Positions 1,083 to 36,600 of a stretch of 64,000 bases of DNA are shown one piece after another. The number at the start of each line of letters is the position of its first letter. The first letter of the stretch is position 1. Where the stretch lies: positions 62,001 through 126,000 of the forward strand of contig JAQGDQ010002374.1 of NCBI GenBank assembly GCA_030141605.1, given 5' to 3'. This stretch comes from Tubiluchus corallicola (taxonomy: Eukaryota; Animalia; Priapulida). The notes beneath the pieces are model-generated. The model was given only the letters and a program-made list of their open reading frames with translations. It did no database searches and had not been told where the DNA came from. The translations under genes were made by a program, and so were the position numbers.

Positions 1083-2440
1083 ACCTCCTGTCACTGACAG
1101 CTGTTATCAACTATCCTGTCCTAACCAAAGGCTACATTATGTGCTAAAATGTGTTTAAAAGGCTATCAAGGCTATCCTTCTAAGACGAGGCACTAAACCA
1201 GCAGAGGTGTTTTTGTCACATTCGGAATACGTCATGTGTCATCATGTTAGTACATCATGCATCAACAAAATAAACATCCAGAGACAGTAAGGTGAATGAA
1301 TTGAGTGAGTGTTGGACCCGATGGTCACAGATACTTGTACTGAACAGGATCAGTGATGCTTAACTGACAATGTTGTTAAACTGGCAGTTGTTAAACAATC
1401 GGCTGTTATTTGAAACTATTCATTGTGTTTGTTGCTTTTTCACTTTTTTTGCTCGTCATTAGTACTGGCTCTATAGCTTGTTCAATGATGTTTTCATTAT
1501 CAAATATATCTATTAATTTAAAGGACAAGAAAAGGGGTGCCTAAAGTAGGTTTCACAAAAATGGTCTTAAAAATTGTATTAGTTTGAATCAAATTTAATG
1601 CGTATATCGTATTCGGCATCATGTACGCTATACATGAAACAAAAAAAGATGTAAAGGATAGAAGGGGTTTGCTTCATCATTGCTCTGCACATTCATGCTA
1701 TTATTTTAATAATCCAGAGGTTACTGTTTCGAATACAGGGTAATGCCCACTTTTTTACTTTACAGTTTTCTTTCAAGTTCAGTTGAGGTGTGACTGAATA
1801 AAGTGTCATACTCAATGACTGAAAATGTCATAAATAATTTACTGTCATGGTGTCCGAGAGTATAGATACTTTTTGCATTGATCTCACCATGCCTTGTTAT
1901 TTTGTAACTGTGTTTTCATTTCAATAAAATCGAAAGTTGACATTTCTTGACCAGACGGCTGTTGGTCTCAATCTGTAAAAAAACTGGCTCCATTATATCT
2001 GCTATGCATGAATACGTAGCATTCATTTCAGTTTTCAGGCCCTAGAGAAAATGCACATGACCTATATTCATCCACTCACTAGGCGTCGACTCCACATAGC
2101 AATATACGCAGAAACTGTGACCCGAGTTCAACGTATTTAGCTAATAGGGTAAAGCCAATGGAACTCGGGGACGCCTGCCCATTTGTGACCTTTGACATCT
2201 TTCACAGCTTTGGCCTGTGGCGATCGGGTCACATTCAAAGCTAAATAAACACCACGAGAGACAAAAATAAAAAAGTATAAAAGGTCAAAATGGACATAAT
2301 AAAAATTCGGGTAAATCAAGAAGATACTGCTTTGCAGCAATTTCTCAAAAAAAACAATTTGTAGAAAGTTTGCACATTATTTGTCATCAGCAGATGGGTC
2401 TAACATGTTTGTCTTTGCACAGGCAAATGTTCACCAGACT

Positions 2441-2455
2441 ATGCAGATTGAGACG
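2441..2455 (+). CDS. Putative first coding exon (MQIET) of the ANK-cGLR gene
   Basis: Acceptor tctttgcacag at 2422, then ATG CAG ATT GAG ACG and GT at 2456. Phase 0 joins the acceptor at 2666 in frame. Confidence 0.45.
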
Positions 2456-2666
2456 GTGTAAATTTCAGTATCTTATTAATGCTTTTCACTCCAGCTAATC
2501 AAAATAGTCAAAAACAAAGTGGAAGAAAGCTTTAATTTTTCAAACTTTGAACTTTTTTGATTTAAACTCAAGTCACAATGACTGATCACTAAAAATTTAA
2601 CAATTTGCAAAAATTGCAGGTCAAAACTTAGTTTCTATAATTTCTCTGATTTTAAACTGGTTTCAG

Positions 2667-5192
2667 ATCGATGAGAGAGACGAAAATGGTTGGACAAAAC
2701 TCTATGGAGCAGTAAGGCTTAATAATGCTGAGCAAGTAAAACGGTTAATAAAAGATCGTGCTGATGTCAATGTTAAAGATGAAGATGGAGGCACAGCATT
2801 GATGTGGGCAGTCTGGGAAGATAATGAACACATTGTTAGTTTGCTACTAGAAGCAGGTGCAGATCCTAACTTGACTAACAATCGTGGTATTACAGCATTG
2901 ATGGATGCAGCCAGGAATGATAATGAACTCCTTGTTAGTTTGCTACTAGAAGCAGGTGCAGATCCTAACTTGACTAACAATGATGGTAGTACAGCTTTGA
3001 TGCTTGCAGCCAGGAAAGATAAAGAACGCAATGTTAGTTTGCTACTAGAAGCAGGTGCACATCCTAATTTGACTGACAATCGTGGTTGGACAGCGTTGAT
3101 GCATGCAGCCATGAATGGTAAAGAACGCAATGTTAGTTTGCTACTAGAAGCAGGTGCACATCCTAACTTGACTGACAATGATGGTCAGACAGCATTGATG
3201 TTTGCAGTCTGGGAAGATAAAGAACTCAGTGTTAGTTTGCTACTAGAAGCAGGTGCACATCCTAACTTGACTGACAATGATGGTAGAACAGCATTGATGG
3301 ATGCAGCCAGGAATGATAAAGAACTCAGTGTTAGTTTGCTACTAGAAGCAGGTGCACATCCTAACTTGACTGACAATGATGGTAGAACAGCATTGATGGA
3401 TGCAGCCATGAATGGTAAAGAACGCAATGTTAGTTTGCTACTAGAAGCAGGTGCACATCCTAACTTGACTGACAATGATGGTCAGACAGCATTGATGTTT
3501 GCAGTCTGGGAAGATAATGAACGCATTGTTAGTTTGCTACTAGAAGCAGGTGCACATCCTAACTTGACTGACAATGATGGTCAGACAGCATTGATGTTTG
3601 CAGTCTGGGAAGATAAAGAACGCATTGTTCGTTTGCTACTAGAAGCAGGTGCAGATCCTAACTTGACTGACAATGATGGTTGGACCACACTGCATTCTGC
3701 TGCTGATTATGAAGTAACTTTGGAATCAGGAGTGGTGCAATCATTAATGAAACATGGCGTTGATATTAACAAAGTAGACAATTCTGGCAAGACTGCAGTG
3801 CAGTTGTACATTGAAAAAGCAACAAATGAAACCCTAAACAAAGAACTACGAGAGACTATTGGTTATCTGCTAACATGTCTGTATGTAACAGCCAATAAAA
3901 AGACTGAGTACGATAGCCAGTTTATTACATTTAAAACGAAATGCATTAATTTGTTACGAGAGGAAGACTTGGATCATAAATCGGTGAAAGAAGTACTTGA
4001 GCTCCCTGGCATAGGACGTCTTCCACCAACCCATGAAAATCATGTTATCAGAACAAAAATTGAAGCCTTAGCTGCCAGAGTATGTACTAAGTTGGGAGAA
4101 ATGGATGAAAGGTTTGATTCTTTCTACAAGCTAGTAGACAGCAGCGCTTGTGGAATCAAAGCTGGGTTACCGGATGAATTTGATTTTTTCATCATCTTGA
4201 AAAGCTTATGCGAGGGTCTGAATGTCGAAGAAACCGACAAAGCAGGATATGTAAAAATTACGTTAGGTGACAAAGCAATGAGAATGTTTCCCGAGTTTGT
4301 TGAAAATGGCAGGTTTTCTTTTGACAAGTTCAAGAGCTATTTTACTATTCTTTTATCCCGGGCTATGAATGCAATTTTCCTGGAAGACTCGGAAATAACG
4401 GAATCTTTCAAGTTCGATAAGGTAGTGTGGAATAAGGTTTGTACTTGCTTCAAACTGATGTACATCTGGAGGCTACCTGGAGGCTGTTACGATGCACCAC
4501 TACCTATCTCATTAGACATGACACCTGCTATAGAAGTACCAGGAAAACCGGCAGGGATGTTGACATCATGTGACCCCGGCTCAGTTACCTCTTATCACCT
4601 TGTATTTAAGCCATGTCCTGATGCAGAGCAAAATTACTGTGCCGTATCTATGGCTGTGTATGAAAGTCAACTTGTTGGAAACATGAGTGAGCATAAGAAA
4701 GAAGGAATAATTCTGGCAAAAGCTTTGCTCAATGATGACCTTTATTCCAAGCAAGCGGAAACCATTGAGAACCTAAGGCTAAAATATTCCAAGGACGATG
4801 TCATGCGTGCCATTTATACGCTGAAATTCCATCCCAGCCTCCTGATAGATTCTTACGTAGTGAAAACAGCTTCAATTCATGAAGCCAGCTGCCATCAGGA
4901 TGACTCTCACTGGAAAGGCAATGAAGTTTTGAATCCAGTTTTAGGCATATTTACCTACATTTCAGACTGCTGCAAAAAAAAGCACATGCGTCACCACCTT
5001 CTTGAAGATGTAAATGTTCTTCAAGAACATGCCATTAAGCGTATTGGTGATATGTCTCTTCTGTATTTGATGAGCATATGCGCAGAAGATATATGTGCTC
5101 ATGTCAGAAAAGATGCTGTACCAGCTAACCTTGGGGATTTCAACTGGGAGCAACTTCATCAGTGGTCTCATGCACGGTTGAGATTTGTGCAG
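2667..5192 (+). CDS. Main exon of an ankyrin-repeat cGAS-like receptor (ANK + Mab-21/cGAS nucleotidyltransferase)
   Basis: Acceptor ggtttcag at 2666; open frame from IDERDENGWTKLYGAV through about 12 ankyrin repeats. NTase motif LVDSSACGIKAGLPDEFDFFIIL, third acidic strand ISLDMTPAIEV, and Mab-21 C-terminal helices (AVYESQLV...IILAKAL, IDSYVVKTA, HMRHHLLEDVNVL). Donor cag|gtattt at 5192/5193 (phase 0). Confidence 0.88.
2781..3671 (+). repeat. Nine near-identical 99-bp coding tandem repeats (internal ankyrin repeats)
   Basis: Units start at 2781, 2880, 2979, 3078, 3177, 3276, 3375, 3474 and 3573. Core gttagtttgctactagaagcaggtgca(g/c)atcctaacttgact is essentially invariant. Confidence 0.97.
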
Positions 5193-5635
5193 GTATTTTA
5201 TAGATTATTAGCAACATTAGTGTTTTTAGATCATTTCAAACTTTTGCTTGCATTGTTAACATTTCTGCATTTTTCACGTTTTAAATAATTTAAAATCTTC
5301 ATTGATTATTTTCAGTAAATCTGTTCTGCTACACAAGGTACATGCGGGAAATTTGTAAAATTGTTTTTCGTTTAATTTTTGAAAGACTAGAATAACATCT
5401 GTGCTGTTCTATGTGCAAAAAATTTATACTGGGTAGTGCAAAACAGAATCCCAACAGAGCAAGGCAGCATTGAATGGAAATTGTCTGAACAATATTTTGT
5501 AATGATTTCTTCTGTATTATTAACCTTTGCCTTCGTACCCCAAACTAGCAAAGGTTCTTTACCATCCTGCACACAGTGGAAGAGATTTTCATGTTATGTA
5601 TTATGATCAATAATGCTAAAATTCTTGGTTAAATG

Positions 5636-5834
5636 TACGACTTCATGTGCTCGTAATGTGTGTTGCGTGATCCCTAATACGAGATGCGTTTACAACAATT
5701 ACATTTAAACACGTGGAAATGCTTCAATGTGTACTTATTACTTAATACATCATCCAAATGCGTGATGCGTACTCACACAATGCGATGGCTATCGTCTGAA
5801 TACGCATCACGCATTACGAGCACATGTAGTCGTA
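5636..5834. mobile_element. Palindromic MITE (possibly PIF/Harbinger-like), copy 1
   Basis: About 33-bp terminal inverted repeats tacgacttcatgtgctcgtaatgtgtgttgcgt / acgcatcacgcattacgagcacatgtagtcgta; no ORF. Confidence 0.7.
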
Positions 5835-6375
5835 GCTTTACAGAGTAAAACTAATAATTTTTAATTCCGCTCCATTGTTAGAATTGGTATGACTCCATAC
5901 TGATTTTGTGTACCATTGTACATAATGGCATGGCCTTTGGGAAAATTACACTAAAAAAAACTAAAATTAGCTCTGATTTGCCGAAAAAAAATCCTATTTT
6001 TACGTTTGACAAAAATGGGTTCAATTTGTTAATAGGTTATATTTTCGTGTTGTACAGTTGTTGTTTTTTAAAGATATTGTTTAAATTATTTAAAAATCTT
6101 TCGAAATGTCTAAAACAGCTGCTATGAAAGATAGTTTGTTTCCATGTGTTACAAATGAATGTAACTTTTGCTAAACTTTTACACTATTATCAAGATCTTA
6201 GTAAAATCTCTTTTTGCCAAGTCATTGTGCCACATACATGATGGAGAGGGATTGGCAGCAAGAGCTTTCATTACTGTGTCAAAAAGTTGTTTTAGACGTT
6301 TAATTTTAGGCAGTTTGACATGTTTTCATTTCTAAAATAATTGCTTTTCTGTCAGCTGTCAAATCTAGTTTAAAA

Positions 6376-6984
6376 TCTTATCACCTTGTATTTAAGCCAT
6401 GTCCTGATGCAGAGCAAAATTACTGTGCCGTATCTATGGCTGTGCATGAAAGTCAACTTGTTGGAAACATGAGTGAGCATAAGAAAGAAGGAATAATTCT
6501 GGCAAAAGCTTTGCTCAATGATGACCTTTATTCCAAGCAAGCGGAAACCATTGAGAACCTAAGGCTAAAATATTCCAAGGACGATGTCATGCTCGCCATT
6601 TATACGCTGAAATTCCATCCCAGCCTCCTGATAGATTCTTACGTAGTGAAAACAGCTTCAATTCATGAAGCCAGCTGCCATCAGGATGACTCTCACTGGA
6701 AAGGCAATGAAGTTTTGAATCGAGTTTTAGGCATATTTACCTACATTTTAGAATGCTGCAAAGAAAAGCACATGCCTCACCACTTTCTTCAAGGTGTAAA
6801 TGTACTTGAAGAACATGCCAAGAAGCATATTCGTGTTGATGGTGTGTCTCTTTTGGATTTGATGAGCATATGCGCAGAAGGCATTTGTACTCATGTCAGA
6901 AAAGACGCTGTACCAGCTAACCTTGGGGTTCCCAATTGGGAGCAACTTGATCAGTGGTCTCATGCACGGTTGGAATTTGTGCAG
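6376..6984 (+). pseudogene. Duplicated, diverged, still in-frame C-terminal half of the cGLR exon (intronic orphan copy)
   Basis: SYHLVFKPCPDAEQNYC...WSHARLEFVQ is open and ends at the same cag|gtattt donor. It lacks the ankyrin repeats and catalytic motifs, and no phase-0 acceptor was found at its 5' junction. Confidence 0.8.
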
Positions 6985-7429
6985 GTATTTTATAGATTAT
7001 TAGCAACATTAGTGTTTTAGATCATTTCAAACTTTTGCTTGCATTGATAAACTTTCAGCATTTTTCATGTTTTAAATGACTTAAAATCTTCATTGATTAT
7101 TTTCAGTAAATCTCTTCTGCTACACAAGGTACATGCGGGAAATCTGTAAAATTGTTTTTCGTTTATTTTTTGGAAGATTAAAATAACATCTGTGCTGCTC
7201 TACTTGCAAAACAATTATACTGGGTAGTGCAAAACAGAATCCCAACTGAACAAGTCAGCATTGAATGGAAATTGCCTGAACAATATTTTGTAATGATTTC
7301 TACTGTATTATTAACCTTTGCCTTCGTACCCCACACTAGCAAAGGTTATTTACCATCCTGCACACAGTGGAAGAGATTTTCATGTTATGATGTATTATGA
7401 TCAATAATGCTAAAATTCTTCGTTAAATG

Positions 7430-7623
7430 TACGACTTCATGTGCTCGTAATGTGTGATGCGTGATCCCTAATACGAGATGCGTTTACAACAATTACATTT
7501 AAACACGTGGAAATGCTTCAATGTGTACTTAATACGTAATCCGTAATGCATAGTGCGTACTCACCCGAATGTGAAGGCTATCGTCTGAATACGCATCACA
7601 CATTACGAGCACATGTAGTCGTA
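7430..7623. mobile_element. Palindromic MITE, copy 2 (carried by the tandem duplication)
   Basis: Same TIRs and flanks as 5636-5834. Confidence 0.7.
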
Positions 7624-8241
7624 GCTTTACAGAGTAAAACCAATAATTTTTAATTCCGCTGCATTGTTAGAATTGGTATGACTCCATACTGATTTTGTGT
7701 ACCATTGTACATAATGGCATGGCCTTTGGGAAAATTAAACTAAAAAAACTAAAATTAGCTCTGATTTGCGGAAAAAAATCCTAATTTTACGATTGTCAAA
7801 AACAGATTCAATTTGTAAATACGTTATATTTTCGTGTTGTACAGTTGTTATTTTTTAAATATATTGTTTGAATTATTTAAAAATCTTTCGAACTGTCTAA
7901 AACATCTGCTATGAAAGATAGTCTGTTTCCAAGTGTTACAAATGAATGTAACTTTTGCTAAACTTTTACACTGTTATCAAAATCTTAGTAAAATGTCTTT
8001 TTGCCAAGTCGTTGTGCCACATACATGATGGAGAGGGATTGGCAGCAAGAGCTTTCATTACTATGTTAAAAAGTTGTTTTAGACGTTTAATTTTAGACAG
8101 TTTGACATGCTTTCATTTCAGAAATAATTGTTATTCTGTCAGCTGTAAAGTCTAGTTTAAAATCTTTCTGTGAACAAAGAATATTGTCCTCTGTTACAAA
8201 GTTATATATTGTTGTTTTCAATTTTAATTCTTTTATTTCAG

Positions 8242-8379
8242 ATGTATGTGCTCTGCAATGATGAGGCATGGTTAGATGCCGGTCACGAGCAAAGAATGTT
8301 ACGTTTGCTTAAAAGGCTCCATGAGTTGCGTTTTTCAGAACCAACTGTAGGTCTAATTAACTGGAACTTCTTATCCAAG
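8242..8379 (+). CDS. Putative exon 3 of the ANK-cGLR gene
   Basis: ttttatttcag| MYVLCNDEAWLDAGHEQRMLRLLKRLHELRFSEPTVGLINWNFLSK |gtttgt. 138 bp, phase 0/0, compatible with the 5192 donor. Confidence 0.6.
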
Positions 8380-8767
8380 GTTTGTATAAGAGTTTTGTAG
8401 TAAATTTACAGTTTTGTAATAATATTTGTGCAGCAATATTGAGACATATTTAAGGCAGCAATGTTTAAATTCCAGACACGAGCAAGTAATACTACGTTTC
8501 CTTAAAAGGCTCCATGGTTTGTTACTTGTAGAACCACGTCTATCTCCTATTTTTTTTAACAGGCGCATCTTATGTGAGTTTTGTGGAAGAGTTTTGTAAT
8601 AAATTCTCATGCACAAGAATTGTTGGCCAATTTGGAAATTGCTATATATTTGGTCTTTTTAATTGATTTGTTCATTTTGCAAGCTGCACTGCTAAAAGTA
8701 AAGGTGGCCATTTTGTTATTACATTCCACAATCTGTTTTCTGCTAGTCAAGAATTACTTTGTTTTAG

Positions 8768-8814
8768 GTGGAGCGGAAGTACCGCAACAATGATGAAATT
8801 CAAGACCTTACAAG
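8768..8814 (+). CDS. Putative exon 4 of the ANK-cGLR gene
   Basis: tttgttttag| VERKYRNNDEIQDLT(R) |gtatga; phase 0 in, phase 2 out. Confidence 0.5.
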
Positions 8815-11339: not shown

Positions 11340-11670
11340 ATCATAATCTTGAGAAAATCATTGTTATAGTTAGGCACGTTTTTTGTCACGTTTTTCCTCA
11401 GAGGTTCACCTAATACTTCTAAAACAGGTGATATGTCTAATGAAATATACAGAGAATTGTAATAGTCTCCATGGTACATAAGATGGATGCAAGTACAAAC
11501 CTTATTCCTACCCACACCAAACAAAATCGAAAGATCCCGTTATTTCTGTGCCTTCTTTGAAAATTGCATTTTTAGCCAAGCATAAAAGCATCACAAAATG
11601 GCTCTTAAAGTTGCCAAAAGAAAACCTGCCATTTTCAATAAACTCTGGGAACAATCCAACAAAAATTATC
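11340..11670 (-). pseudogene. Frameshifted fragment of a paralogous cGLR nucleotidyltransferase domain
   Basis: Two frames, FPEFIENGRFSFGNFKSHFVMLLCLAKNAIFKEGTEITGSF and NKVCTCIHLMYHGDYYNSLYISLDISPVLEVLGEP, align to FPEFVENGRFSFDKFKSYF...NKVCTCFKLMY...ISLDMTPAIEVPGKP of the intact gene. Frameshift near 11510-11525. Confidence 0.85.
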
Positions 11671-11914
11671 CTCATATACAAAAAAAGATGATCCAAATGA
11701 GTTGAACAACTACTGACCTATCTCACTCGTATCACCCATTGATGCCTAATGCAATTTTTGCAAATTCAGTTATCATTCTTACTCAGTTCAGCAATGGTAA
11801 TGTTCACATGTGACAACATCAGCATCATTAAGCCTTTTCACAGTTTCCTGAGGTCAGGAGAAAACAGTTAGAGCTGAAAGTTTTGCTGCTTTCAGATGTC
11901 ACTCTCCGCCATTA

Positions 11915-14013: not shown

Positions 14014-16945
14014 CTGTCCCCCTTCCTCCAGACAAAGAAGTCCCTTCTTTGAAGATCTAGTCTTCCATCGGGAGGGAGAAGAACAGCTACCCACACAGAC
14101 CAGAAAGCAAGTTCGAGCACTGCTAATCAACAATACAAAAAGTTTCTCCTTCCATTAATCAAATAGAATCACAGAAATATTTTGCAAAGACTGGCAATTC
14201 TACAAAACAACATGAGTTAGTGCATAACGCCTACCGAATTACAAATTAAAAGATGAAGACAATGTCAGATTTCTTGTATGAATAAATTAAAGTTAAACAT
14301 TACATTTCTAGTAACAACAATTTTTGTATAACGGCGAGTCGACTTAAAAAAACTTCCAACTAAATATGCCTAAATATGCTACGTAAAAATGCAAAAATGA
14401 ACGAAATAAATGTAATCAGATATCATCCGCTATCCGTAAATAAACGTAACGTAGCGTAAATAATCCGCACGATCCGCAATTCTTAATGATTCACCAGTAC
14501 CAATTATCATGTCTCAACAAGCAAATGCAAGTAAGGTTTGAGGTGTGGACTAGCCCTTAGTCAAGCAACAACGCATCCGATACCACGGGTGTAACACCTG
14601 GGTTGGTAGAGCTTGCCTGGAAAAGATTAACGCTAGTACTCGTGTCAAGCATACAGTTAGTTCAAGTGAATTTTCACTGCAGACCCAGCATAAGATTTAT
14701 TAAGCTTCAGTATTGGCTCCTATGGCGATTAACGTCGATTCTCCATAAATTTCCAAAATAGCTGTGCTGTACAACAGAAAAAAGGTAGTAAATCTGCTTA
14801 CACCAACTATATTCATAGCGGGAAACAAAAACGAAAAGTTATATGCCACTTTATCTTTAAATAAATCAACATCTTTAATAAACAACAACAATGCTGACAA
14901 CTTAACTTCTAAAAAAAATTTTTTTTAACACCTTACCGTGTTCGATTAACTTACGCAACCGAGGGCTGGTCAGTGGTCAAAGTCGCTCTGTTCACATGGT
15001 AGCCAACGGACAAGGCTTTGTCGCGAAGCTAGAAATAGGACCTCGAAGAACGAAAGCAACAACAACAAAACGTCAATTATCGAAAAAGACTAATTAGAAC
15101 TAGTCATCAACTGGAATCGGTTGACTTAAGACAACGAAATTGAGAATTTCGATCACGACTATCTACTCGTACATCACAGCTGAAACAGTCTAAACAAACA
15201 GTAATTGTTTAGCAAAAATAAAATGTTTGTTCTGCCATTTATCTCTCGAGATTAATGCTAGAACAAATGACAATTTGCAATAACTATTTACAGAACGATT
15301 TTTTTTAAATTCCATTCAAGAAAAAAAATTGAAAATTTAAGAAAAGAATACGCAGTTGATTTCCAATACGGCCACTTGAAAACATGGAACAAAAACTAAT
15401 ATATTCGCCTCTCCTCCTCTCCTTAAAGAAGAGTGAAAATTCCATTTTTCACAAAATACGACAACAATAATAATGACATGAGGTAATCAATATACAGCCA
15501 AGGAAATATGTTCAATTCTTGGCTCCTCAGCTGCAAAAAAAATAAAAATTTTAACATTTTTTAAACATGCTCATTAAGTAAGTTTTATAATTCGAGTTAA
15601 AAAAGCATCTAGTCACGTATTTTCGTATTTGACAAGTGTAAGTAGTTGCTAATTTGGATGTATCAAGTAGAATAGTTGCTGGAATTACGAAAATGTTTCG
15701 CGTAAGTAATTCTATGAGTGCATCAAAACTCGAGCATTTTCTTGCTTGTAAAGTGAGGGTTAAGATGAGAGAACTCTTCTAGCATTTCATTTCTCAAGTC
15801 TCGGATTGCGTATTCGATGTGCAGTAGGGTCTTCATAGATGAAGTTTCCATAGTGGGTTGTAGGTTGTCTTGACCTGCGGGGGTAAGGTCGGGGAGGACT
15901 GGACGGCAACTGGACGTCAACGGCTGCATTGGCTTTCAAAAAGGTTAGAGGTGTGCTAGAATGGGTCTTGCTTGATACGAGAACAGGATTAATAGAAGTT
16001 GGAGAGAGAACAGGATCCGGTAACGTAGGTTGCGAGGTTACATTATGATCGGATTGAAACGATTTGGGTTGACTATCAACAGTTTTTCTATTGTTTATCT
16101 CAAGATTACACTCAACATTGCTCCTAGAATGGTTCACCTGGGTAGACTGCTCGCCCGAAAGAGGCGTGCGTACACTATCGCCGGCCTTTTCAGAGGAGTC
16201 CTCAGCAATTGCTGAACTGGAGCTACCAGGAAGCCATTCGTTGATGAGTTGTCGAGTTGATTCGTCGGGAATAAATTCAGCAGAGTCGGCTATGTCAAGT
16301 AAACTAAGAGTAGTTGAGCTGGGAAAATCAACTCTTTTGGGAGTGGATGTTCGTGGTTTTGGTATAGGCGGAGAGAAGGTGGGCAATGAAAGCCGTACAT
16401 CACCGTTGGATGAATTGTCATGGAGAAGGGAAAGTGGATCACGAATAGGAGTTAAGGCTGGCATGGAGGGATTAAGTAGTTCTGGAATTTGGGCTGGAAA
16501 ACTCGATGCATTTTCATTGTGCTCATCATTATAATCAGCTATTCTGCATGGTGAATATGGAGGTGGCGGCAATCCGAAAGAATCGAGAGATACAGAACGA
16601 TCAACTGCTGTCAGCTGTGGCTCGAGTTCAATGTTTTGTTCAGTTTTAGATTTATCGGTACCCGTTGGATCGGCATTGGATTTATCGGCACTAACTTCAG
16701 GATCAAGGCTATAAGTTACTGTAGCTTGGCTGTCAGATAATTCATTGAGTGAAGGCGTTTCACCAGGTGTCCAGGAAAATCCAGTGGCTGGTGTATAACG
16801 CCACAAACGATCTGCATGAACAATTTTGCATCTTTGTCTTGGTCCCGGCAAACGTATACGATAGACAACATCTGAGAGACGTGTTATGATTTCATAAGGT
16901 CCCTGCCAATCAGACTGAAGCTTTGGACTGCGACCGATTTTACGC
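14014..16945 (-). mobile_element. Ty3/Gypsy internal 3' region: integrase C-terminus (GPY/F module), long S/P-rich tail and 3' non-coding region; cut by the gap
   Basis: SPKLQSDWQGPYEIITRLSDVVYRIR...IVHADRLWRY. The ORF stays open to the stop at 15787 and ends in a PYPRRSRQP-type tail. Confidence 0.8.
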
Positions 16946-17251
16946 NNNNNNNNNNNNNNNNNNNNNNNNNNNNNNNNNNNNNNNNNNNNNNNNNNNNNNN
17001 NNNNNNNNNNNNNNNNNNNNNNNNNNNNNNNNNNNNNNNNNNNNNNNNNNNNNNNNNNNNNNNNNNNNNNNNNNNNNNNNNNNNNNNNNNNNNNNNNNNN
17101 NNNNNNNNNNNNNNNNNNNNNNNNNNNNNNNNNNNNNNNNNNNNNNNNNNNNNNNNNNNNNNNNNNNNNNNNNNNNNNNNNNNNNNNNNNNNNNNNNNNN
17201 NNNNNNNNNNNNNNNNNNNNNNNNNNNNNNNNNNNNNNNNNNNNNNNNNNN
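16946..17251. other. Assembly gap (306 N)
   Basis: Run of N. Confidence 1.
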
Positions 17252-17810: not shown

Positions 17811-20800
17811 TCACTTTTGATTGTCGGGTTTTTCTTCCTCAATGAACTCCAGTGGACAGAGTTTGGTGATTGGTCGTGTAAGTTCACTATTGCCAATCTT
17901 CAGTTTTGCAACTCGAGTGTGCCCGTCGCTACCAGGGTAGACTTCTAGTATGCGTCCCATAGGCCACTGTCCTCTAGGTGTATTTGGAGATATAACAAGT
18001 ACGATGTCGTTTACTTGAATGTCTCTCTGCACACGATTCCATTTACTGCGTCTGTTGAGTCCTGGAAGCCACTCTCGCATCCATCTTTTCCAAAAATGAC
18101 GTATTAATTCTTGGACACGCCTCCAACGCTTTCTAGGATTAAAGTCTGTGTTATCCACTGATTCGGGCGCGAATTGTCCACCAACTTGCCCAAATAAAAA
18201 ATGGTTTGGCGTCAAGGGAATGTCATCTTTCTCATCTGCTGTTTGGTACGTCAATGGTCTCGAATTTAATAGTGCTTCTGCTCCGGTAAATGCTGTCATG
18301 AGTTCTTCATCCGTGACGTCAGCGTTTCCGAGAATAGCGAATATGGCTCGTTTTGAGGCTTTTACCATTATTTCATAGGCTCCTCCAAAATGTGGTGCTA
18401 ATGGTGGGTTAAAATGCCACTTGATACCTTGGTTTGCAGATGTCCGTTGAATCTTCTCTTCATCTAATTTCACTAATAGACTTTGTAGTTCATTGTTCGC
18501 TCCTACGAAGTTTAAACCGTTGTCAGAAAGCATCTCAGTTGGCAAACCTCTGCGATTGACCATGCGATAGAAGGCGTTTAAGAACGAATCAGTGTCAAGG
18601 CCAAAGGCTATCTCTAAATGCACTGCCCGCGATGTCATACAAGTGAAGAGGCAAAGATAGCGTTTCTGTCGACGTTTTCCTCTTCCTTGAACTGTAATAA
18701 ACGGTCCAGCAAAATCCACTGCTGTCCTAGCAAAAGCTCGTAAAGGCAGTTTCACTCTGATCTCTGGAATTGGTGCCATCACTTGCGTTGCAGATTGAGC
18801 TTTCTGCTTACGGCATTTTGCACATTCTTTCTCAAATTTTCTGATTTCTTCCCTGCCAGAGATTATCCAATATCGAGCTGACAGTGAAGCAAGAGTCTGA
18901 TTCACCCCTATTGCATGATGAGCTTTTTCATGATGATGTCCAATTATCAACTTGGTTACCCAGTTATTCTTAGGCAGAATGATCGGATGGCGTGCATCGT
19001 ACGATAAGTATTCTGCGTGAATGAGACGTCCTTCGCTGCGAATAACTCCATCCTCGTCTAATCTAGGTTGCAGCTTTAATAAATTGCTATTCTTCGGCAA
19101 CTGTTGGTTATTCTGGAGTAATTTGTATTCCAGTGAAAAGGCTTCACGTTGCATGTTTCGTACAATGCTTATCTCAACGTCTTGCAATTCGTCTGGCTCT
19201 AATTCTCCAAACTTCTTGTGCAGTTTGGAATCACGACAGTTTTCTAGAAAACGATGTACCCATGCTTGTACTCGAATCAGTCGTAACCAACTGGAAAACC
19301 GCTCAGGTTTTAGACGCCAATTGTCATCCTGGTTTTGTATTGGTCCAGTAATGTAAGTTTCAGCAGTTTCACGATTAGATACATGTCTAATTTTTGTTGG
19401 CTTTCTAAGTTCTGCGTCATCCATTTGCTGAAATTCTATAATTTTAGATGGCCATTCTTGCTCGTTCTTGTGAAGAAATTTCGGTCCTCTCCACCATTTT
19501 TCATCATTAATAAGTTGATTTGCAGTTTTCCCTCTAGTCACAGCATCAGCAGCATTCTCTTTTGATGTGACATGCCGCCATTGATGTGGAAATGTTTGAC
19601 TCTGAATTTCGCCTATACGATTAGCGATGAACGGTTTCAGTGTGCGACTTCTACTCCTTATCCACCATAAAACGTTCATACTATCACACCAAAAAATTGC
19701 ATTTTTTAGTTCCATGTTTAGTGCACCAGCTATGTGGTCCGTAAGCCTTAGCCCCAGTATTGCAGCCATCATTTCTAGTCGTGGAATACTAATTGCAATC
19801 AGAGGGGCTACACGAGACTTTGCTGCGATGAGTCGACACGATATAGTTCCGTCAGGATAGGTACAACGTAGATAGCTAACTGCTGCATAGGCTTCTTGCG
19901 ATGCATCTACAAATGTGTGCAGTGTGCATGAATCTGTACCCCCCTCCGTGACCAAACATCTCGGAATATGAATTTCTGGCATCTCGATCAATTCTGTAAA
20001 CCACATTTTGGCTTTCCATTGCAAGTTTTCGTCAAGCTCGTCGTCCCATCCTAAACCGGCTGTCCACATTTCCTGCATGATAATTTTCCCTCGAATGAGA
20101 AATGCTGCCAGAAATCCCAATGGATCAAATATTGTAGCGATCTTCCTCAGTATATTACGCTTGGTAAATAAGAAATTGTCGATGTCTATGGATTTTGGTT
20201 TGAAGGTGAAAACATCTTCCTTTGCCAGCCACAGTACTCCAAGTGTTTTTATACTCGGAAGAAGTCCTTCATCTAAGTTAATTTCTGATGCTCTCTCCTC
20301 TTGTGGTATCTCGGCTAACACTACAGGTGAATTTGATAACCATTTACGAGCTCGCATGCCAGCCTTTTCCCAAAGACTGGACAACTGACTGTAGAGCTCT
20401 ATGCCTTGTTCATCGTCGATGGCTGAATCCATGCTATCGTCCATATACGTCGAGTAGAGTACGGTTTCTGTAGCCATTGGATACTGCAATTGAAATTTTT
20501 CTGCATGCTTCCGCGTCACAAATTGTGCAAGAAATGGTGATGCATTTACCCCAAAAACGACTCTTTCGAATTCATATTGGTCAGGCTGTCTGTTTTCGAA
20601 ATTCCTCCAGAGAAATCTATGGTAAACCCTGTCCTCAGGAACAATTTTAATCATCAAGTACATCTCTGCAATGTCCGATACCAATGCTACAGGATTTTTA
20701 CGAAAACGAAGCAAGACATCGAATAAGTCTCTCTGCAGCTTTGGTCCGGGACTAATGACATCATTCAGCGAGACTCCATCGCATTCTTCTGACGAATCAA

Positions 20801-22290
20801 ACACCATGCGTACTTTTGTTGTCTCTCTATCTGGTCTGATTATTGGAAAATGGGGTAAAAACCATCGTCCGCATTGCTGATCTTCTAATGATGTCACTTG
20901 ACGTATGAAGCCTTTCTTCACATACTGCTGAATATTATCTTCGTATATTTTTGCCACTTCTGGATTTTTTAGTAGACGTTTTTCGGTGCTCTGTAGTCTT
21001 TTCAGTGCCTTTTCGTAGCTCAATTTCGCACTAGGCAGCTCAACTGAATTATCTTTCCATGGTATGCAAACCTCATAATGTCCATCCGTCATTTTCATGG
21101 ATTTCTCTACTTTAGCTAAAGCGTTCTCTGCATCAATATCCAGAATGCGGCAACTTGGCATCGTGCCAGCTGAATCTATCTGCCAAAATTGTTGCAACAT
21201 CTCATCAAGCCGAATTTCACTAGCTTCAGCCGAAAAATACGTGTGAACGAAATTGGTGCGAACACGATAACTGTCGCAATCATTTGGTTGTCCTATACAT
21301 GTCCATCCGAGTGGAGTTAATCTAGCTATTGGCTCCCCTGGCTTTCCACGAACATCTCTGTACGAATAATGTAAATCGGTGTAATCGCTGCCAATCAACA
21401 TGTCTACGATGAGGCGACGTCCTAGTTTTGGAAATTCAATAGCTTTCAAATGGCCCCACTTGTGACTGCATTCATTCCAGTTTATTACATTCAAATTTCC
21501 GGTAACTCTTTCAGCCGTTAATGCGCTGAATTTCATGTCCAGCTGGCCGTTGACACTCTGTAGATTAAATGTTACAGGTCTTGTTTCGAAAACTTTTGTT
21601 TGCCCATTTAAAACGCTGACGTTAATCTGCTGAGTCTCACCCTCAAGTCCTAACTCTGCTGCTACATCCGAGTTGATGTACGATCTTGTGCTGGCATCAT
21701 CTAATAATGCGTTGATTGTCAATTTACGATTTCCATTTTTCACGATTATTGGTATAGTTCGCAACATAATTTTTTCAACTATCTTGGGATTGCCAGATGT
21801 CATTGTCACAGCCGAATTTTGTTTGTCAGGTGGTATGGTCGATGTTCTACTGCGATGCGATGAACCATCTTCAGCTACAGGTTTGATTGATGACGGTGTA
21901 GAACCAACAGTATTGTTGTAGTTCTTGTTGGTCGCGGCTAAATGCGAATTATTTTCTCTAACTTCTTTTGACGAATGTAGAAATCTGTTATGATTGTATT
22001 TGCAGCTGTCTATGCCACAAACTCTGCTACGTGGACAGGTTTGACCTTGGTGATCTGACCCCAGACAGCGATAGCATAAGTTCAACCGCTTTGCAGAGTC
22101 CCATCTTTGTGGAATGCTCATCTTGCGAAACTCATCACACCTCCAAACACCGTGAGGCCCATTGCAAACTTTGCATAATCTTTGTGATTGACTACTTCTG
22201 GAAACTGCAGCTTCTTGGTTATCACCTGTTGTCCCAAAGTACGATCTCGGTTTTGGTTTTAAACCGATTTTTTTCTCTTTTTCTGTAATA
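17811..22290 (-). mobile_element. BEL/Pao LTR retrotransposon gag-pol polyprotein, uninterrupted but 5'-truncated within gag
   Basis: Zn knuckles (CKVCNGPHGVWRC upstream of the listed Met, CYRCLGSDHQGQTC, CGIDSCKYNHNRFLH), protease ALLDDAS, RT SDIAEMY...YMDD, Pao RNase H FVDAS/RLE/WCDS/NAAD, integrase HHCC plus VDFAGP/SDNG/E, and C-terminal PRGQWPMGRILEVYPGSDG. Confidence 0.95.
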
Positions 22291-23806
22291 CTTCATTATT
22301 TATCAATTTATGTCCGCATATTATCGCAACTGTGAGGTAACACTGCTGAATTTTACAAAACTATAACATTTTCATGGGGGAGGGGTAATTTTAAGTGTCA
22401 CCCAAGGTGCCACAAGCTCTAGCTATGCCACAGCTGCACCGCTGCCACTTTTAAATGGTTATTATTATTTATAAACTGTCCTTATCTGTGTGTATATTAC
22501 CACAAGATCTGGGTTCGAATCCTGGTTCAGTTAATTTACTCAGTGTCTTTAAACCCATCCTCTTTTTGAATTTAACTGTTGATAAAAAGATTTAATTTCA
22601 AAGGTTAATATGTCCTCTTTTGTTTCTTATTCCACGACGTTCTGAGCATAAAGTCCTGAACATTCATGGAAATTCCATAACTACAGCATTTCATGCTCAG
22701 TATTCATGATATCTAACTTGGTTAGTGAAGGATCTATTCTTATACATTCTAAAAAGAATATTTATTGCACCAGATATGGTAATTTAAAATGCACACAATA
22801 TAAAACTGCATAAGTTAGTCTAAAATAGTTTAACTAACTCCTATACATTAAAAGAAAATTGTTTAAAAATCTAATTGGTAAGAATAACAGGCCTAGAATT
22901 TATTAGCTGCGTACCCACTGGTATAAGGAAATAGTATTTGCTGTACATGCCAAGAGATGATATCTACCAACTTTTGAGATACGAAGCTTAGACATGCAGG
23001 TTTGTTTTTGATCAAAGCACTGGTTTGGGGCAGATTTTTTGGTGGAATCCATGAATTGCATGTCTTATCAGGGCAAGTCGGTTCTGCGTCTTGGGTTCTT
23101 ACCATTCATTCTGTGTCACTGTTGGTGTATTGTAGAATGCAGCTCTATTGAATTTACCTTATCTTGGACATTTTCTAAATATTTGCAGAATTCTCAAGTC
23201 TGGGATAAGTATTTACAAATTTCAATGCTGTATTACCTAGCAAGAAAGTTACCTAGCAGACCCAAAACACTTCAAAAACCTTCCTTTAATCGAGTCCAGT
23301 TTAAAAAAATTGCAGATGACATGTCATCCCAAAGACTCTCAATGCCATATGTTACAATAGGCAACATTTTAATATTGAACAGACATAGTACGGTTTCTTA
23401 TACATTCTTATATGGTGTTTATAAATTCTGTACATAAGTCTGGCCTCCTCTTTTCCATTATCTAACTAAAGTTGTCTAACTATCTGACCTAACCACATTA
23501 TCAGATATTCTGTAATCACAAAAATTATCAATAGTGCATTTAATAATGGCTACCTAACTTACCCAATTTATGATTGTGGGCAATATTAGGGAGTTACTTA
23601 AATTTTAGATTAAATGTATTCACACTCATTCTGAAAGCCTTCTGTTGTAACTACTTTACTGTACTCATTTGTAGGTAACTCATACCATTGTTGGTAATAT
23701 CGTTTGGTCTTTTTAACATACATGTGTCTAGAACATACACCTCAAATGATTAAATCTAGATTTAGTTCTTACTTTATAATTAATGTTTGTTTTGATTTTG
23801 TTATAG

Positions 23807-25920: not shown

Positions 25921-27225
25921 AAGTACATCTACGAGCAATACTATTTGTGCAGCTTGCACATTAAATAAATGGCACTAATGCTTGACAATATCAAGTCACA
26001 TCGAGTAAATGGTACTAACATACTAGCAATAACATAACCCTACAATAATTTCATTCATATTTTATCAACTCTTAAGGCAACTTTAGCTGACAAATATACA
26101 CGCATCCATGAACCTTTCTTTAGGAAATCGAAGCAATACGAGATGTAAAACATAAAAAAAAAGTGATTTGAATAATACTTATAGTTTGGAAGAGCAAATG
26201 TGCATGCACCATAACGACTAACCTTGGATTTACACAGACAACACATCAGATTGAATTTACACATAATATTGAAATTACACACAGTGTTAGTGACACTAAC
26301 TCTATTACTAATACTGAGTAAAACAATACACTAATGTGATGATTTTTGGAGACTATCTCATCAATGCTTTCTGAGGTTGAAGCAGCAAGGACTTTATCAT
26401 TCAGGTCACTTGGCTTCATGAAGCCCGTTATATATCACTTGAGCAGAACTAGAGCTGGGAATACCCAATTGCTAGCAAACGAAAAGCAGTACATGTAGCT
26501 CCAGCAACTTTTATCTTATAGATACATGACTTACATTTTTGCTGCAAGAAACCATAAATATCTTTGTATTCAAAATGTGACAAAACATCTGCAGCAAGTA
26601 ACTCATTTTACAAAGGTTTACCCAAAGCTTATCATGAGTTATACGATAGTCTTAACATGCTTCCATAACTTGTGCAACAAATATGGATAAATTACGCTAC
26701 ATTTTAATAAAGAAGTGGTGCAAGGTTCAAACAATTAAACAAAATTAGCAATATAGTACACTACACTGTGCAGTATAAGTATAAGTGAGTTTTGCAGACA
26801 ATTTTGTAAATATAAAAGTTTTCATTAGCCACTTACAAGAAGTGCGACATTTCCTTCTTAATGGTGATAGCAGAACAGCCTTCACCTACTGTCTCTTTGT
26901 TGCTTTCACCCAAATATGGTGAAAGGTAAAACTCTTCTATGTTACATTCTTCAATACAGAAGTTAGCATCATCTACATTACTACCTTCTTCATGCACAGG
27001 GCTGGAGGTATCATCCTCCACAAGGGAGTAATCTAGGGGTTCTTGCTTAATAGGAATTTTGTCTAAAACTATTTCGTTTGTGTTATGCAAATAATTGAAT
27101 TCAGGAGTTGGTATTGGGGCATCATTAACTGTCTGTGACATATTGCGCTGTTCTTGCAAATGAGGAATTCTTTGCACTTTGACACTTACTGACAATTCTT
27201 TTCCTTTATGGCATGCTATGTGCCT
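25921..27225 (-). pseudogene. Near-identical 1.3-kb copy of the 3' end (last ~130 codons plus part of the 3' UTR) of the giant zinc-finger gene
   Basis: Matches 32768-34071. I could see only a 1-nt A-run difference and one substitution (gatttg vs gaattg). Confidence 0.95.
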
Positions 27226-32448: not shown

Positions 32449-33678
32449 TAGTACTGTTAATGTATTTAAGTTAATCAGCATTTATTTTTATGTGTACAAA
32501 AGTTTTTAGGGTCGGTTTCCTGGGATTTGATTTAATATACATCATCATATACATTGTAAGTTTACTTAGCAAATTAAAAGCACATGCACATCAGACACAG
32601 TGCACACTTAAATTATGTCAGAGAACAGCGAACATCTTTCGTGCTTAGGTTTCCAACATGTTCTATACATCTCATTTTACAATCATACTTCTAAGTACAT
32701 TAAAATTATTTACATGTTCAATAACATAATTTTTCTAGTTCACAACATGAATAACTGACAAAGTTACAAGTACATCTACGAGCAATACTATTTGTGCAGC
32801 TTGCACATTAAATAAATGGCACTAATGCTTGACAATATCAAGTCACATCGAGTAAATGGTACTAACATACTAGCAATAACATAACCCTACAATAATTTCA
32901 TTCATATTTTATCAACTCTTAAGGCAACTTTAGCTGACAAATATACACGCATCCATGAACCTTTCTTTAGGAAATCGAAGCAATACGAGATGTAAAACAT
33001 AAAAAAAAGTGAATTGAATAATACTTATAGTTTGGAAGAGCAAATGTGCATGCACCATAACGACTAACCTTGGATTTACACAGACAACACATCAGATTGA
33101 ATTTACACATAATATTGAAATTACACACAGTGTTAGTGACACTAACTCTATTACTAATACTGAGTAAAACAATACACTAATGTGATGATTTTTGGAGACT
33201 ATCTCATCAATGCTTTCTGAGGTTGAAGCAGCAAGGACTTTATCATTCAGGTCACTTGGCTTCATGAAGCCCGTTATATATCACTTGAGCAGAACTAGAG
33301 CTGGGAATACCCAATTGCTAGCAAACGAAAAGCAGTACATGTAGCTCCAGCAACTTTTATCTTATAGATACATGACTTACATTTTTGCTGCAAGAAACCA
33401 TAAATATCTTTGTATTCAAAATGTGACAAAACATCTGCAGCAAGTAACTCATTTTACAAAGGTTTACCCAAAGCTTATCATGAGTTATACGATAGTCTTA
33501 ACATGCTTCCATAACTTGTGCAACAAATATGGATAAATTACGCTACATTTTAATAAAGAAGTGGTGCAAGGTTCAAACAATTAAACAAAATTAGCAATAT
33601 AGTACACTACACTGTGCAGTATAAGTATAAGTGAGTTTTGCAGACAATTTTGTAAATATAAAAGTTTTCATTAGCCAC

Positions 33679-36600
33679 TTACAAGAAGTGCGACATTTCC
33701 TTCTTAATGGTGATAGCAGAACAGCCTTCACCTACTGTCTCTTTGTTGCTTTCACCCAAATATGGTGAAAGGTAAAACTCTTCTATGTTACATTCTTCAA
33801 TACAGAAGTTAGCATCATCTACATTACTACCTTCTTCATGCACAGGGCTGGAGGTATCATCCTCCACAAGGGAGTAATCTAGGGGTTCTTGCTTAATAGG
33901 AATTTTGTCTAAAACTATTTCGTTTGTGTTATGCAAATAATTGAATTCAGGAGTTGGTATTGGGGCATCATTAACTGTCTGTGACATATTGCGCTGTTCT
34001 TGCAAATGAGGAATTCTTTGCACTTTGACACTTACTGACAATTCTTTTCCTTTATGGCATGCTATGTGCCTAACTAAATGTGCTTCCCTACTGAATGTAC
34101 TTGGACAAAGATTACATTTGTAAACGGGTTTTGCACGATGAGAATACAGGTGATTTTTCAAATTCCACGAATGAGTAAACAATTTGTTGCACTCGGGACA
34201 CTTGTGTGTCTTTCGTGGTTTGCTGGCAGTTCCTTTCACAAGTTGTGTTTTGTCACATATGGCAGTTTTGTGGGCCTCTTTGTGTTGTTTTAAAAGTGTC
34301 AGGAACTTGAAACTGGCAGCACATTGTTCGCAGTCATAATTCTTACTGGCAGTAGAGCATTTCTTAGTCTTACCAACTGAATGAGCACTTTGCTTATGTT
34401 GCAGTAGCTGTTCCTTTACTGAAAACTTTTCACCGCATTTATTACAAGAAAACACTTTTTCCCTTGTATGAATCCTACTGTGTGCCCAAAGAGTTTTCTT
34501 TGTTTTGAAAGACGCATTGCATTTTGTGCACACATGAGGTCTGCCTTCAACATGAATTTCTCTATGATGACAAAGGCTACTAGCATTTTTAAAAACTTTC
34601 CCACACACATTACAAACATGTTCTTTACTAGTATGTTTGTGAATTTTCATATGTATACGTAATAAATGTTTTGAGGTATAAGTGTTGTTGCATACATTGC
34701 ACATGTGTTCTTTTTCTTTGTGAGTTCTCATATGTTCACGTAGTAACTGCAATGAGGTAAATGTGTTGTGGCACAAGTTGCAACGCAGGTCTTCAAGTGT
34801 TGCATGTCTAACAAGCATATGTTTTGCTAATCCTTGTTTTGATTCATATTGTGCACTACACTGTGAACAAGGATACGGTCTATCAAATTCAATGTAGCCA
34901 TCAGCAGATAATTTCTCTCTCTCATGTAATGCAGTATGAGCTGACAAAAGCGATGCTCTCTTAAACTTTTCGCCACATTGTTCACATGTATATGCACTTT
35001 CTTGTACATGACTTTCAGAATGTGATCTTAGTTCTTCCTCTTCACTAAAGCTTTGTAAGCACACATCACACTGATGCATGAGTGTAGGCTGGTGACATTT
35101 CATATGTGTTTTACGCGAACGTCCGTGACGGAATTCTGCATCACAGATTGGGCACTTGAAAGGCTTACTATCAGTATGGACAATTTCATGTGCTCGGAGA
35201 TGTGTGGCCTTTCTAAATGCTTTTGGACAAGAAGTGCATTTAAATGGTTTCAACCTTGAAGCCGGGTTTCTGTGGCATTGTTGATGCCTCCTTAAGTGAC
35301 TCAGCTGTCTAAAACTTGTGCAACACGTGGTGCACTCATACGGTTTTTCACCAGTGTGAATTCGTTTATGAGACTGCAATGAAGTATGTGTTTTAAAAGC
35401 AGATTGGCAACTATTACATTGGTATGGTCGATCAGTTACATGTTTTACTTTGTGCGTTAATAAGTGTCTATGTTGTCGAAAACGCCTATTACACACGGTA
35501 CACGAGTAAGGCTTTTCGCCCGAGTGAATCATCATGTGCAACTTTAGATGACCATTTTGTGAGAACATCTTATGGCAGGTCTCACATTCATAAGGCCGTT
35601 CATTTGTGTGTGTTCTTGTATGGATCTTCAGCGTGCTCCAATGTCTGAATTGCTTATTGCATATCTGACACTGGTACGGTTTTAAATCTCCGTGAATCAT
35701 CATGTGTGACCTAAGATAAGCCGGCAGCTTAAAAGCAGCTGAGCACACTTGGCATTGAAATGGTTTTACATCTGAATGAACTAACTGATGGTTTTTCAAA
35801 TAAGTGGCTTGTTTAAACTTAGCACTGCATTGTAGACATGCAAATGGTCTTTCATTAGAATGAGTTATCTTGTGATGTTTTAACCCATCTTTTGACTTAA
35901 ATGCTCTGTTACACACATCACATATAAAGGGCTTGATGTCAGTATGTATACGACTGTGACTTTTCAAAGAAGTACCTGTTTTGAAAGCAGCACCACATAC
36001 TGTACAAGGATATCCTCTGTAGTCAGAATGAACAGTCATGTGAACCTTCAAATGTGCTGATTGTCGGAAACAGGCACTGCATGTATCACACTCAAAGGGC
36101 TTAGAATCAGTGTGAGTGATTTTATGTGATTTCAGCCCATTACGGGTTTTGAATGACTTACCACATCTTGCACAAATGAATGGGCGTACATCGCTGTGCA
36201 CCTGTTTGTGAGAATTAAGAGCAGTAGTTGTCTTGAAAGCAGCACCACATATCTGACATTGATGTGGTCTTTCATCAGTGTGCACTAGCATGTGAGTTCT
36301 TAAATTTGCAGGTTGTTTAAAGCATGCAGAACAGGTATCACATTTAAATGGTTTCAAATCTGAATGCCTTGTCTGCATGTGACACTTGAGATGTCCTGTT
36401 TGGCGAAACTTTGCATTGCACAGCTCGCATGAATAAGGTCGAATGTCAGTGTGTGTTCTTTTATGTAAGCGCAGTGCTTCCGGCAGCTTGAAATCTTTGG
36501 AACATATATCACAAATGTGTGGCCGTAAATCTGTATGTATCTTCTTATGCGAATTAAGGTAGGTATTTGTCTTAAATGATGCTTGACAAACGTCACAAGT

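Follow-up and report, generated by a model that had tools for sequence, protein, structure and literature searches.

A homogenised, hypervariable ankyrin-repeat array joined to a cGAS-like enzyme domain in the priapulid Tubiluchus corallicola

We report a gene of Tubiluchus corallicola in which a homogenised array of nine ankyrin (ANK) repeats precedes an enzyme domain of the cGAS-like receptor (cGLR) type, located in a 64,000-nucleotide stretch of contig JAQGDQ010002374.1 (hereafter the window). Two published kinds of protein, the ANK-cGLR fusion and the NLR with homogenised, hypervariable repeats, are joined here, and the combination is new in the literature searched. The architecture and fold of the protein, the homogenisation and mosaicism of its repeats and an excess of replacement changes at repeat positions 3, 5, 10, 13 and 14 are the observations underlying our best explanation, to which we give an even chance: that the ANK-cGLR array is recombined, that its contact differences are kept by selection and that it serves as a variable, fast-diversifying immune sensor switching on cyclic-dinucleotide synthesis.

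Gene structure and the enzyme domain

The array lies in a large coding exon on the forward strand (2667..5192; 842 codons, open throughout), bounded by splice sites predicted from the sequence, an AG acceptor and a GT donor, each of phase 0. Its product begins with some 11-12 ankyrin repeats, which a helical linker connects to the cGLR enzyme domain, and the model of the full-length product has a pLDDT of 90 and a pTM of 0.84. The homogenised repeats follow a diverged, cap-like first repeat that has not been homogenised (2685..2783, forward) and are themselves followed by diverged last repeats running into the helical linker (3675..3830, forward). Neither the start codon nor the upstream exon of the gene was located in the window.

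Downstream, the gene probably continues in further exons, a point absent from an earlier note on this DNA. The probable next coding exon (8242..8379, forward) resembles the C-terminal tail of P0001, the nearest relative of the window protein (blastp, 43% over 28 aa, pairwise E 1.4e-5), and a possible further one (8768..8814, forward) bears a weak likeness to the same tail, judged by eye; as an Atlas query, the tail yielded no usable match. A short segment similar to this tail is present in three diverged copies (8133-8207, 8268-8406 and 8461-8605), which suggests local exon duplication. The presumed intron holds a tandem duplicate of 4590-6379, 93% identical and on the same strand (6376..8166), which supplies a second copy of the C-terminal lobe, and further along, on the reverse strand (11402..11678), lies a decayed piece of a gene from a second ANK-cGLR subfamily, with identities of 83% and 62% to P0001 and of 52-54% to the window protein.

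The Mab-21/cGLR nucleotidyltransferase core and C-terminal helical lobe occupy 3960..5186 (forward). Pfam families PF03281 (27.0 bits) and PF20266 (30.1 bits) are matched above the cut-off of 24.1, with homology covering both the core and the helix bundle. The model of the enzyme domain (pLDDT 89) finds its best fold match in oyster Cv-cGLR1 (8gjw; Z 28.2, rmsd 2.9, 326 aligned), further matches including 7lt2 and 8gjy (Z 25.3), with beetle and coral cGLRs and cGAS among them; human cGAS is matched by this model in Foldseek with E 2.8e-15. Foldseek with the full-length model and the PDB profile search (alignment A2) gave matches dominated by ankyrin proteins. The Pfam and fold matches thus back the architecture that had been proposed in the earlier note, a cGAS-like enzyme with an ankyrin array.

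The first two catalytic acidic residues (E-F-D, 4176..4184, forward) and the third, an Asp (4515..4517, forward) shared by all of the 39 homologues aligned, are intact. The published cGLR criterion reads [DE]h[DE]h ... h[DE]h with spacers of 8-20 and 50-90 residues (Li et al., 10.1101/2023.02.22.529553), against which the spacers of the window protein are 11 and 108 residues. The GS motif itself reads L-V-D-S, placing the assembled copy outside the h[QT]GS criterion of Li et al. by virtue of an Asp codon at 4137..4139 (forward), which had escaped the earlier note and which was recognised from the homologue alignment and from contigs of other samples. The relatives fall within the motif criterion, the glycine being present in all 39 aligned homologues. 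In cGAS, the corresponding GS residues are G212 and S213. A cGAS mutant with the changes G212A/S213A is reported to have no catalytic activity (PMC7431009), and the copy assembled here is probably impaired as an enzyme, or else the Asp is a base error. In the reading we favour, the Gly-to-Asp change would be such an error or a loss-of-function allele, other copies of the family keeping the Gly. The case for function rests on Gly-bearing copies.

Such copies were found among contigs from four further runs (X1-X4, from at most two samples and two studies), which we aligned to 2001-8300 at 85% likeness; these contigs show presence and not absence, and their depth is not taken as copy number. Among the matches listed, all contigs that cover base 4138 read Gly in 4/4 runs, and in X3 and X4 part of the Gly depth has the same letter as the window at 4136. 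This evidence bears on an alternative that we regard as unlikely, in which the array, a variable binder shaped by selection, does not gate synthesis but acts as a decoy or scaffold, or varies in escape from pathogen inhibitors, and in which the copy described here is catalytically dead or decaying within a birth-and-death family. The Asp at the GS glycine fits this alternative in the light of the inactive cGAS mutant (PMC7431009), as do the partial duplicate and the decayed paralog that adjoin the gene, but the 842-codon frame is open, the three acidic residues are in place and the contigs over 4138, including those in X3 and X4 with the window letter at 4136, are all Gly among the matches listed.

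The calculated pI of the enzyme domain is 5.75. Nucleic-acid-sensing cGLRs have a pI >8.5, and for acidic cGLRs ligands other than nucleic acids have been proposed (Li et al., 10.1101/2023.02.22.529553). In two Priapulus relatives the enzyme domain is basic, with pI values of 8.1 and 8.7.

Repeat variation, recombination and selection

The array is reported by TRF as a single tract (2784-3685) with a period of 99, 9.1 copies, 89% matches and no indels; TRF, repeat alignment and exact-match blocks together define the nine homogenised 99-bp repeats, R1-R9, at 2784..3674 (forward). Their mean identity is 88.3% for nucleotides and 77.3% for amino acids, every repeat being distinct and all in frame. 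In the register 2784-3674, 24 of 99 nucleotide sites vary, and repeat positions 3-19, which make up 51 of the 99 nucleotides, hold 20 of these 24 (p=0.0013), positions 20-33 being near-invariant across R1-R9. In the model, helix 1 comprises repeat positions 7-13, the turn 14-16 and helix 2 17-25. Positions 5 and 10 are hypervariable, with six alleles at codon 5 and five at codon 10, both varying at all three bases; variation is also found at positions 1, 3, 12-16, 18, 19, 21 and 29, and so extends, through 16, 18 and 19, to the turn and the start of helix 2.

Silent differences are few. Four variants are purely silent (one in R1, two in R3 and one in R4) and two additional silent steps are needed at the multi-hit codon 5, while the changes overall comprise 21 transversions and 13 transitions. 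The earlier note had described nine 99-bp repeats with about four synonymous differences, and this description holds; so, exactly in R1-R9, do the residue sets that it gave, namely G/I/S/W/Q/R after the Gly, W/D/L/H/F after TALM, and VWED/ARND/ARKD/AMNG at the exit of helix 1 with D/R in the turn. CpG hypermutation was rejected as a source of the variation, as only 5 of the 24 variable sites touch a CpG, with none in codons 5, 10, 13 and 14.

R7 is a clean recombinant of an R6-type 5' part and an R4-type 3' part. The 5' parts of R6 and R7 share an exact match of 94 bp (3216/3315), and the 3' part of R7 with the start of R8 repeats R4-R5 exactly over 118 bp (3103/3400), the longest exact match between copies. 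These two blocks establish the joining of R6 and R4 cassettes that had been claimed for R7 from its motifs, and KELS does occur with both VWED (in R5) and ARND (in R6). Over the array, the four-gamete test finds 68 of 276 pairs of variable sites incompatible with a single tree, and Rm is 5, which calls for at least five breakpoints; together with the exact blocks, these values support homogenisation and recombination within repeats, although recurrent mutation at the hypervariable codons could be the source of some of the incompatible pairs. A Psim-like value for the internal conservation of R1-R9, taken from our own calculation and not from T-REKS, is 0.835. The thresholds for high internal conservation (HIC) in the literature are a Psim of at least 0.70 (PMC13449251) and of 0.85 (PMC4986451), and the array lies above the former and slightly under the latter.

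Selection was assessed by counting the fewest steps per codon over nine recombining sequences, which is not a codon model. The array as a whole, with 28 replacements and 6 silent changes, shows no replacement excess (p=0.33). For a contact set fixed beforehand as the positions varied in a designed library (2, 3, 5, 10, 13 and 33; PMC4308713), there are 15 replacements over 15.1 sites against 6 silent changes over 22.2 sites, a ratio of 3.7 (p=0.004). The excess at contact positions persists in R3-R9 (p=0.008) and in R5-R9 (p=0.046), and the ratio of replacement to silent change at positions 20-32 is 0.26. Position 14 is one of those randomised in DARPins; with it added to the contact set, the ratio to the array-wide silent rate is 3.5 (p=0.004). 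Five of the six silent changes also fall within the variable positions 3-19 (p=0.07), and when this local silent rate is taken as the reference, the five varying positions give a ratio of 2.6 (p=0.036) and all seven library positions one of 1.9 (p=0.13). Given an excess at the contact set and weaker ratios to the local rate, diversifying selection is likely, but is not established. The concentration of replacements at contact codons that the earlier note described is supported against the array-wide silent rate, is borderline against the local one and is missing from the array taken whole.

Because the library positions vary in ankyrin repeats of every kind, tolerant library positions were compared with tolerant positions outside the library, tolerance being taken from 184 homologous repeats. 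The entropy profile of the window array follows the generic variability of these repeats with a rho of 0.57. Among tolerant positions, those of the library carry 17 changes over 15.8 sites and the others 4 over 17.0 (p=0.002); at positions 17, 22, 25 and 26, which tolerate variation just as well, nothing varies, and changes are 4.6- to 13-fold fewer than at the library positions.

These comparisons bear on a second alternative, improbable in our estimate, which posits a recent expansion of repeats under relaxed constraint. In it, block duplications of an ordinary ankyrin unit, with conversion tracts favouring the helix-2 half, would leave older differences to persist at tolerant positions, and there would be no adaptive diversification. 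It draws on the want of a whole-array excess, on the silent changes that likewise gather in positions 3-19 and on the correlation with generic ankyrin entropy; it sits poorly with the invariance of the tolerant positions 17, 22, 25 and 26, with the six and five alleles that differ at all three bases of codons 5 and 10, and with the 21 transversions as against 13 transitions. As far as codon counts can tell, diversifying selection is the likely agent that keeps the contact codons different.

The resemblance to designed ankyrin proteins is partial. Amino acids vary at 14 positions, of which just five (3, 5, 10, 13 and 14) belong to the designed-library set, and library positions 2 and 33 are fixed among R1-R9 in the register 2784-3674. 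The other nine varying positions lie outside the set and include position 19, which carries a polar N/S where Ile is often found, so that 'DARPin-like', the term used in the earlier note, is an approximation.

Relatives and further copies

A profile-free search of 50% representatives returned 71 proteins, and of the 69 new ones 50 were scanned, the longer being favoured. Ankyrin repeats were detected in 42 of these 50. In a quick tree of 45 of 48 enzyme-domain rows, three short rows having been dropped, the window protein and P0001 fall in a clade of 11 proteins, all ankyrin-fused, with an SH-aLRT of 100; four of its members are from Priapulus caudatus (XP_014670921, XP_014668761, XP_014675828 and LOC106804703). 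A detector seeded with the window repeats, which misses diverged ones, was used to compare arrays, and among the 16 ANK-cGLR arrays with at least five detected repeats that of the window has the highest internal conservation. Only one other passes 0.70, that of P0006 (Priapulus XP_014670921), at 0.76 and with a different consensus, the remaining 14 lying at or below 0.66. With 42 of 50 homologues ankyrin-fused and 14 of the 16 compared arrays not homogenised, the fusion is old and widespread and the homogenisation sporadic.

The P0006 array varies at positions 5, 10, 13 and 14. Two proteins of about 2260 aa, P0012 (Ruditapes) and P0013 (Mercenaria), each have ankyrin repeats and two active-site motifs of the cGLR type, and a subgroup of homologues (P0024, P0030, P0039 and P0050) has GG in place of the GS motif. 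A protein search with the ankyrin region yielded, in the best 120 of 1197 matches, generic ankyrin proteins at 29-47% identity and no allele or paralog; of 39 pattern matches to the enzyme domain in a metagenome scan, 0 were confirmed, and a repeated search with the enzyme domain returned P0001 only.

In the four runs, many diverged contigs, 85-95% alike, pile onto the ANK-cGLR gene, a picture consistent with a family of many copies. The repeat type ALMYAAKKGY, which has no counterpart in the window, appears as a loose end in X2 and X4, and thus in both samples; it differs from each of the nine repeats at 7-11 of 30 nucleotides, brings new residues to positions 10, 13 and 16, and could stem either from an allele or from a paralog. 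Joints that shorten the array were seen at 2869-3678 (X4, side 44) and at 2873-3711 (X1, side 29). Neither spans a multiple of 99, and at 85% likeness we read them as diverged short-array paralogs and not as alleles of the array. Elsewhere in the aligned region, at 5780-5840 and 7450-7560, loose ends are numerous, as are joints that switch strand, a pattern like that of a small repeated palindromic element.

We think it very unlikely that the mosaic of cassettes and the Asp codon arose in assembly from mixed paralog or haplotype reads: many contigs 85-95% alike do lie on the gene, no aligned contig spans the stretch, and elsewhere in the window there are a gap of 306 N and a 99.8% identical duplicate of 1.3 kb, but the nine repeats are all distinct and in frame, their longest exact match of 118 bp can be spanned by ordinary short reads, and repeat-like contigs from both samples cross the array.

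Known systems, proposed mechanism and the rest of the window

That ANK-cGLR fusions occur in invertebrates, as the earlier note stated, is confirmed by the homologues counted above and by Li et al. (10.1101/2023.02.22.529553), whose ANK-cGLRs share with the window protein an N-terminal ANK region, a cGLR core with helical lobe and the three acidic residues. The cGLRs of that work also include an acidic subgroup with proposed non-nucleic-acid ligands, and Cv-cGLR1 (8gjw), the best fold match here. The window copy departs from them in having no GS glycine and a longer spacer to the third acidic residue, and in the available text of Li et al. the ANK fusions are presented as domain architecture only, with no homogenised or hypervariable array described.

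Such arrays are known as the HIC ANK, TPR and WD40 sensor repeats of fungal and other NLRs (Dyrka et al., PMC4986451; Ament-Velasquez and Saupe, PMC13449251), and HIC NLRs occur in animals also (PMC13449251). In common with the window array, these have near-identical repeats, shuffling, and selected sites on the inner helix and hairpin of the ANK unit. In the HIC NLRs, however, the partner of the repeats is a STAND ATPase and repeat number is polymorphic among alleles, whereas the window array is N-terminal, is joined to a second-messenger synthase and is represented by one assembled copy together with unassigned contigs. None of the 12 Pfam families matched by the 846-aa exon product is a NACHT or NB-ARC ATPase. 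Judged from its sequence, the window protein resembles an HIC NLR sensor in its presumed working, yet it is not an NLR. The available text of PMC13449251 contains no mention of cGAS, cGLR or Mab-21.

With the designed libraries (ANK-N5C, PMC4308713; DARPins, PMC8229355) the array has in common a fixed scaffold and variation on the concave face at positions 3, 5, 10 and 13. It differs from them in being natural, in having positions 2 and 33 fixed while 12, 15, 16, 18 and 19 vary, and in showing 2-6 states per position that are dealt as cassettes and not independently. The ANK-cGLRs of Priapulus caudatus share the supported clade, the architecture and, in one case, a homogenised array (0.76); they differ in an enzyme domain that is about 30% identical and in their repeat consensus, and are uncharacterised. 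We found no paper joining Priapulus and cGAS, and none describing a homogenised array on a cGLR, in a literature search that covered mainly openly available papers.

In the mechanism that we propose, unequal crossing-over or gene conversion would homogenise the scaffold and re-deal short cassettes, so that new paratopes could arise in single steps; selection, for which the contact-codon counts give support, would keep the re-dealt contact cassettes different. The concave ankyrin face may then bind a variable, probably protein, ligand other than a nucleic acid, binding would activate the acidic enzyme domain by way of the helical linker, and the product would signal through STING. We put forward only tentatively the wider proposal of an invertebrate ankyrin library, recombining and anticipatory, directly on a cGAS-type synthase: the specificity of a protein-sensing cGLR would be rewritten as cassettes are shuffled, the HIC strategy of the NLRs would feed cyclic-dinucleotide/STING signalling, and the arrangement would have had multiple origins in one ANK-cGLR clade.

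Where the activator of an animal cGLR has been identified, it is dsDNA or dsRNA, other ligands of the acidic cGLRs being only suspected (Li et al., 10.1101/2023.02.22.529553), and a modular, swappable binding face on a cGLR offers a direct test of non-nucleic-acid sensing by the acidic members. If the array does gate the enzyme, the diversity-generating repeat strategy of the NLRs would extend to second-messenger receptors, and a programmable ligand-to-STING switch, with selected ankyrin binders grafted onto the enzyme, is suggested.

Several other features lie in the window. Upstream of the ANK-cGLR gene, on the forward strand, are what appear to be the last exons of a ZER1/ZYG-11-like gene (418-518, assigned by eye, and 843-1025, which matches PF22964 with E 2.7e-5, below the cut-off). 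The reverse strand carries a retroelement-like frame (15787-16945) that adjoins the 306-N gap (16946-17251), and an intact frame of 1493 codons of the Pao/BEL retrotransposon type (17811-22292) with matches to Peptidase_A17 and DUF5641 and weak ones to reverse transcriptase (RT) and integrase. A pair of 1305-bp segments, 99.8% identical (25921-27225 and 32768-34071), is either a recent duplication or an assembly duplicate, and includes the 3' end of an uninterrupted reverse-strand frame of 3945 codons (33679-45516), which is packed with C2H2 zinc-finger-like repeats and would be unusually long as a single exon.
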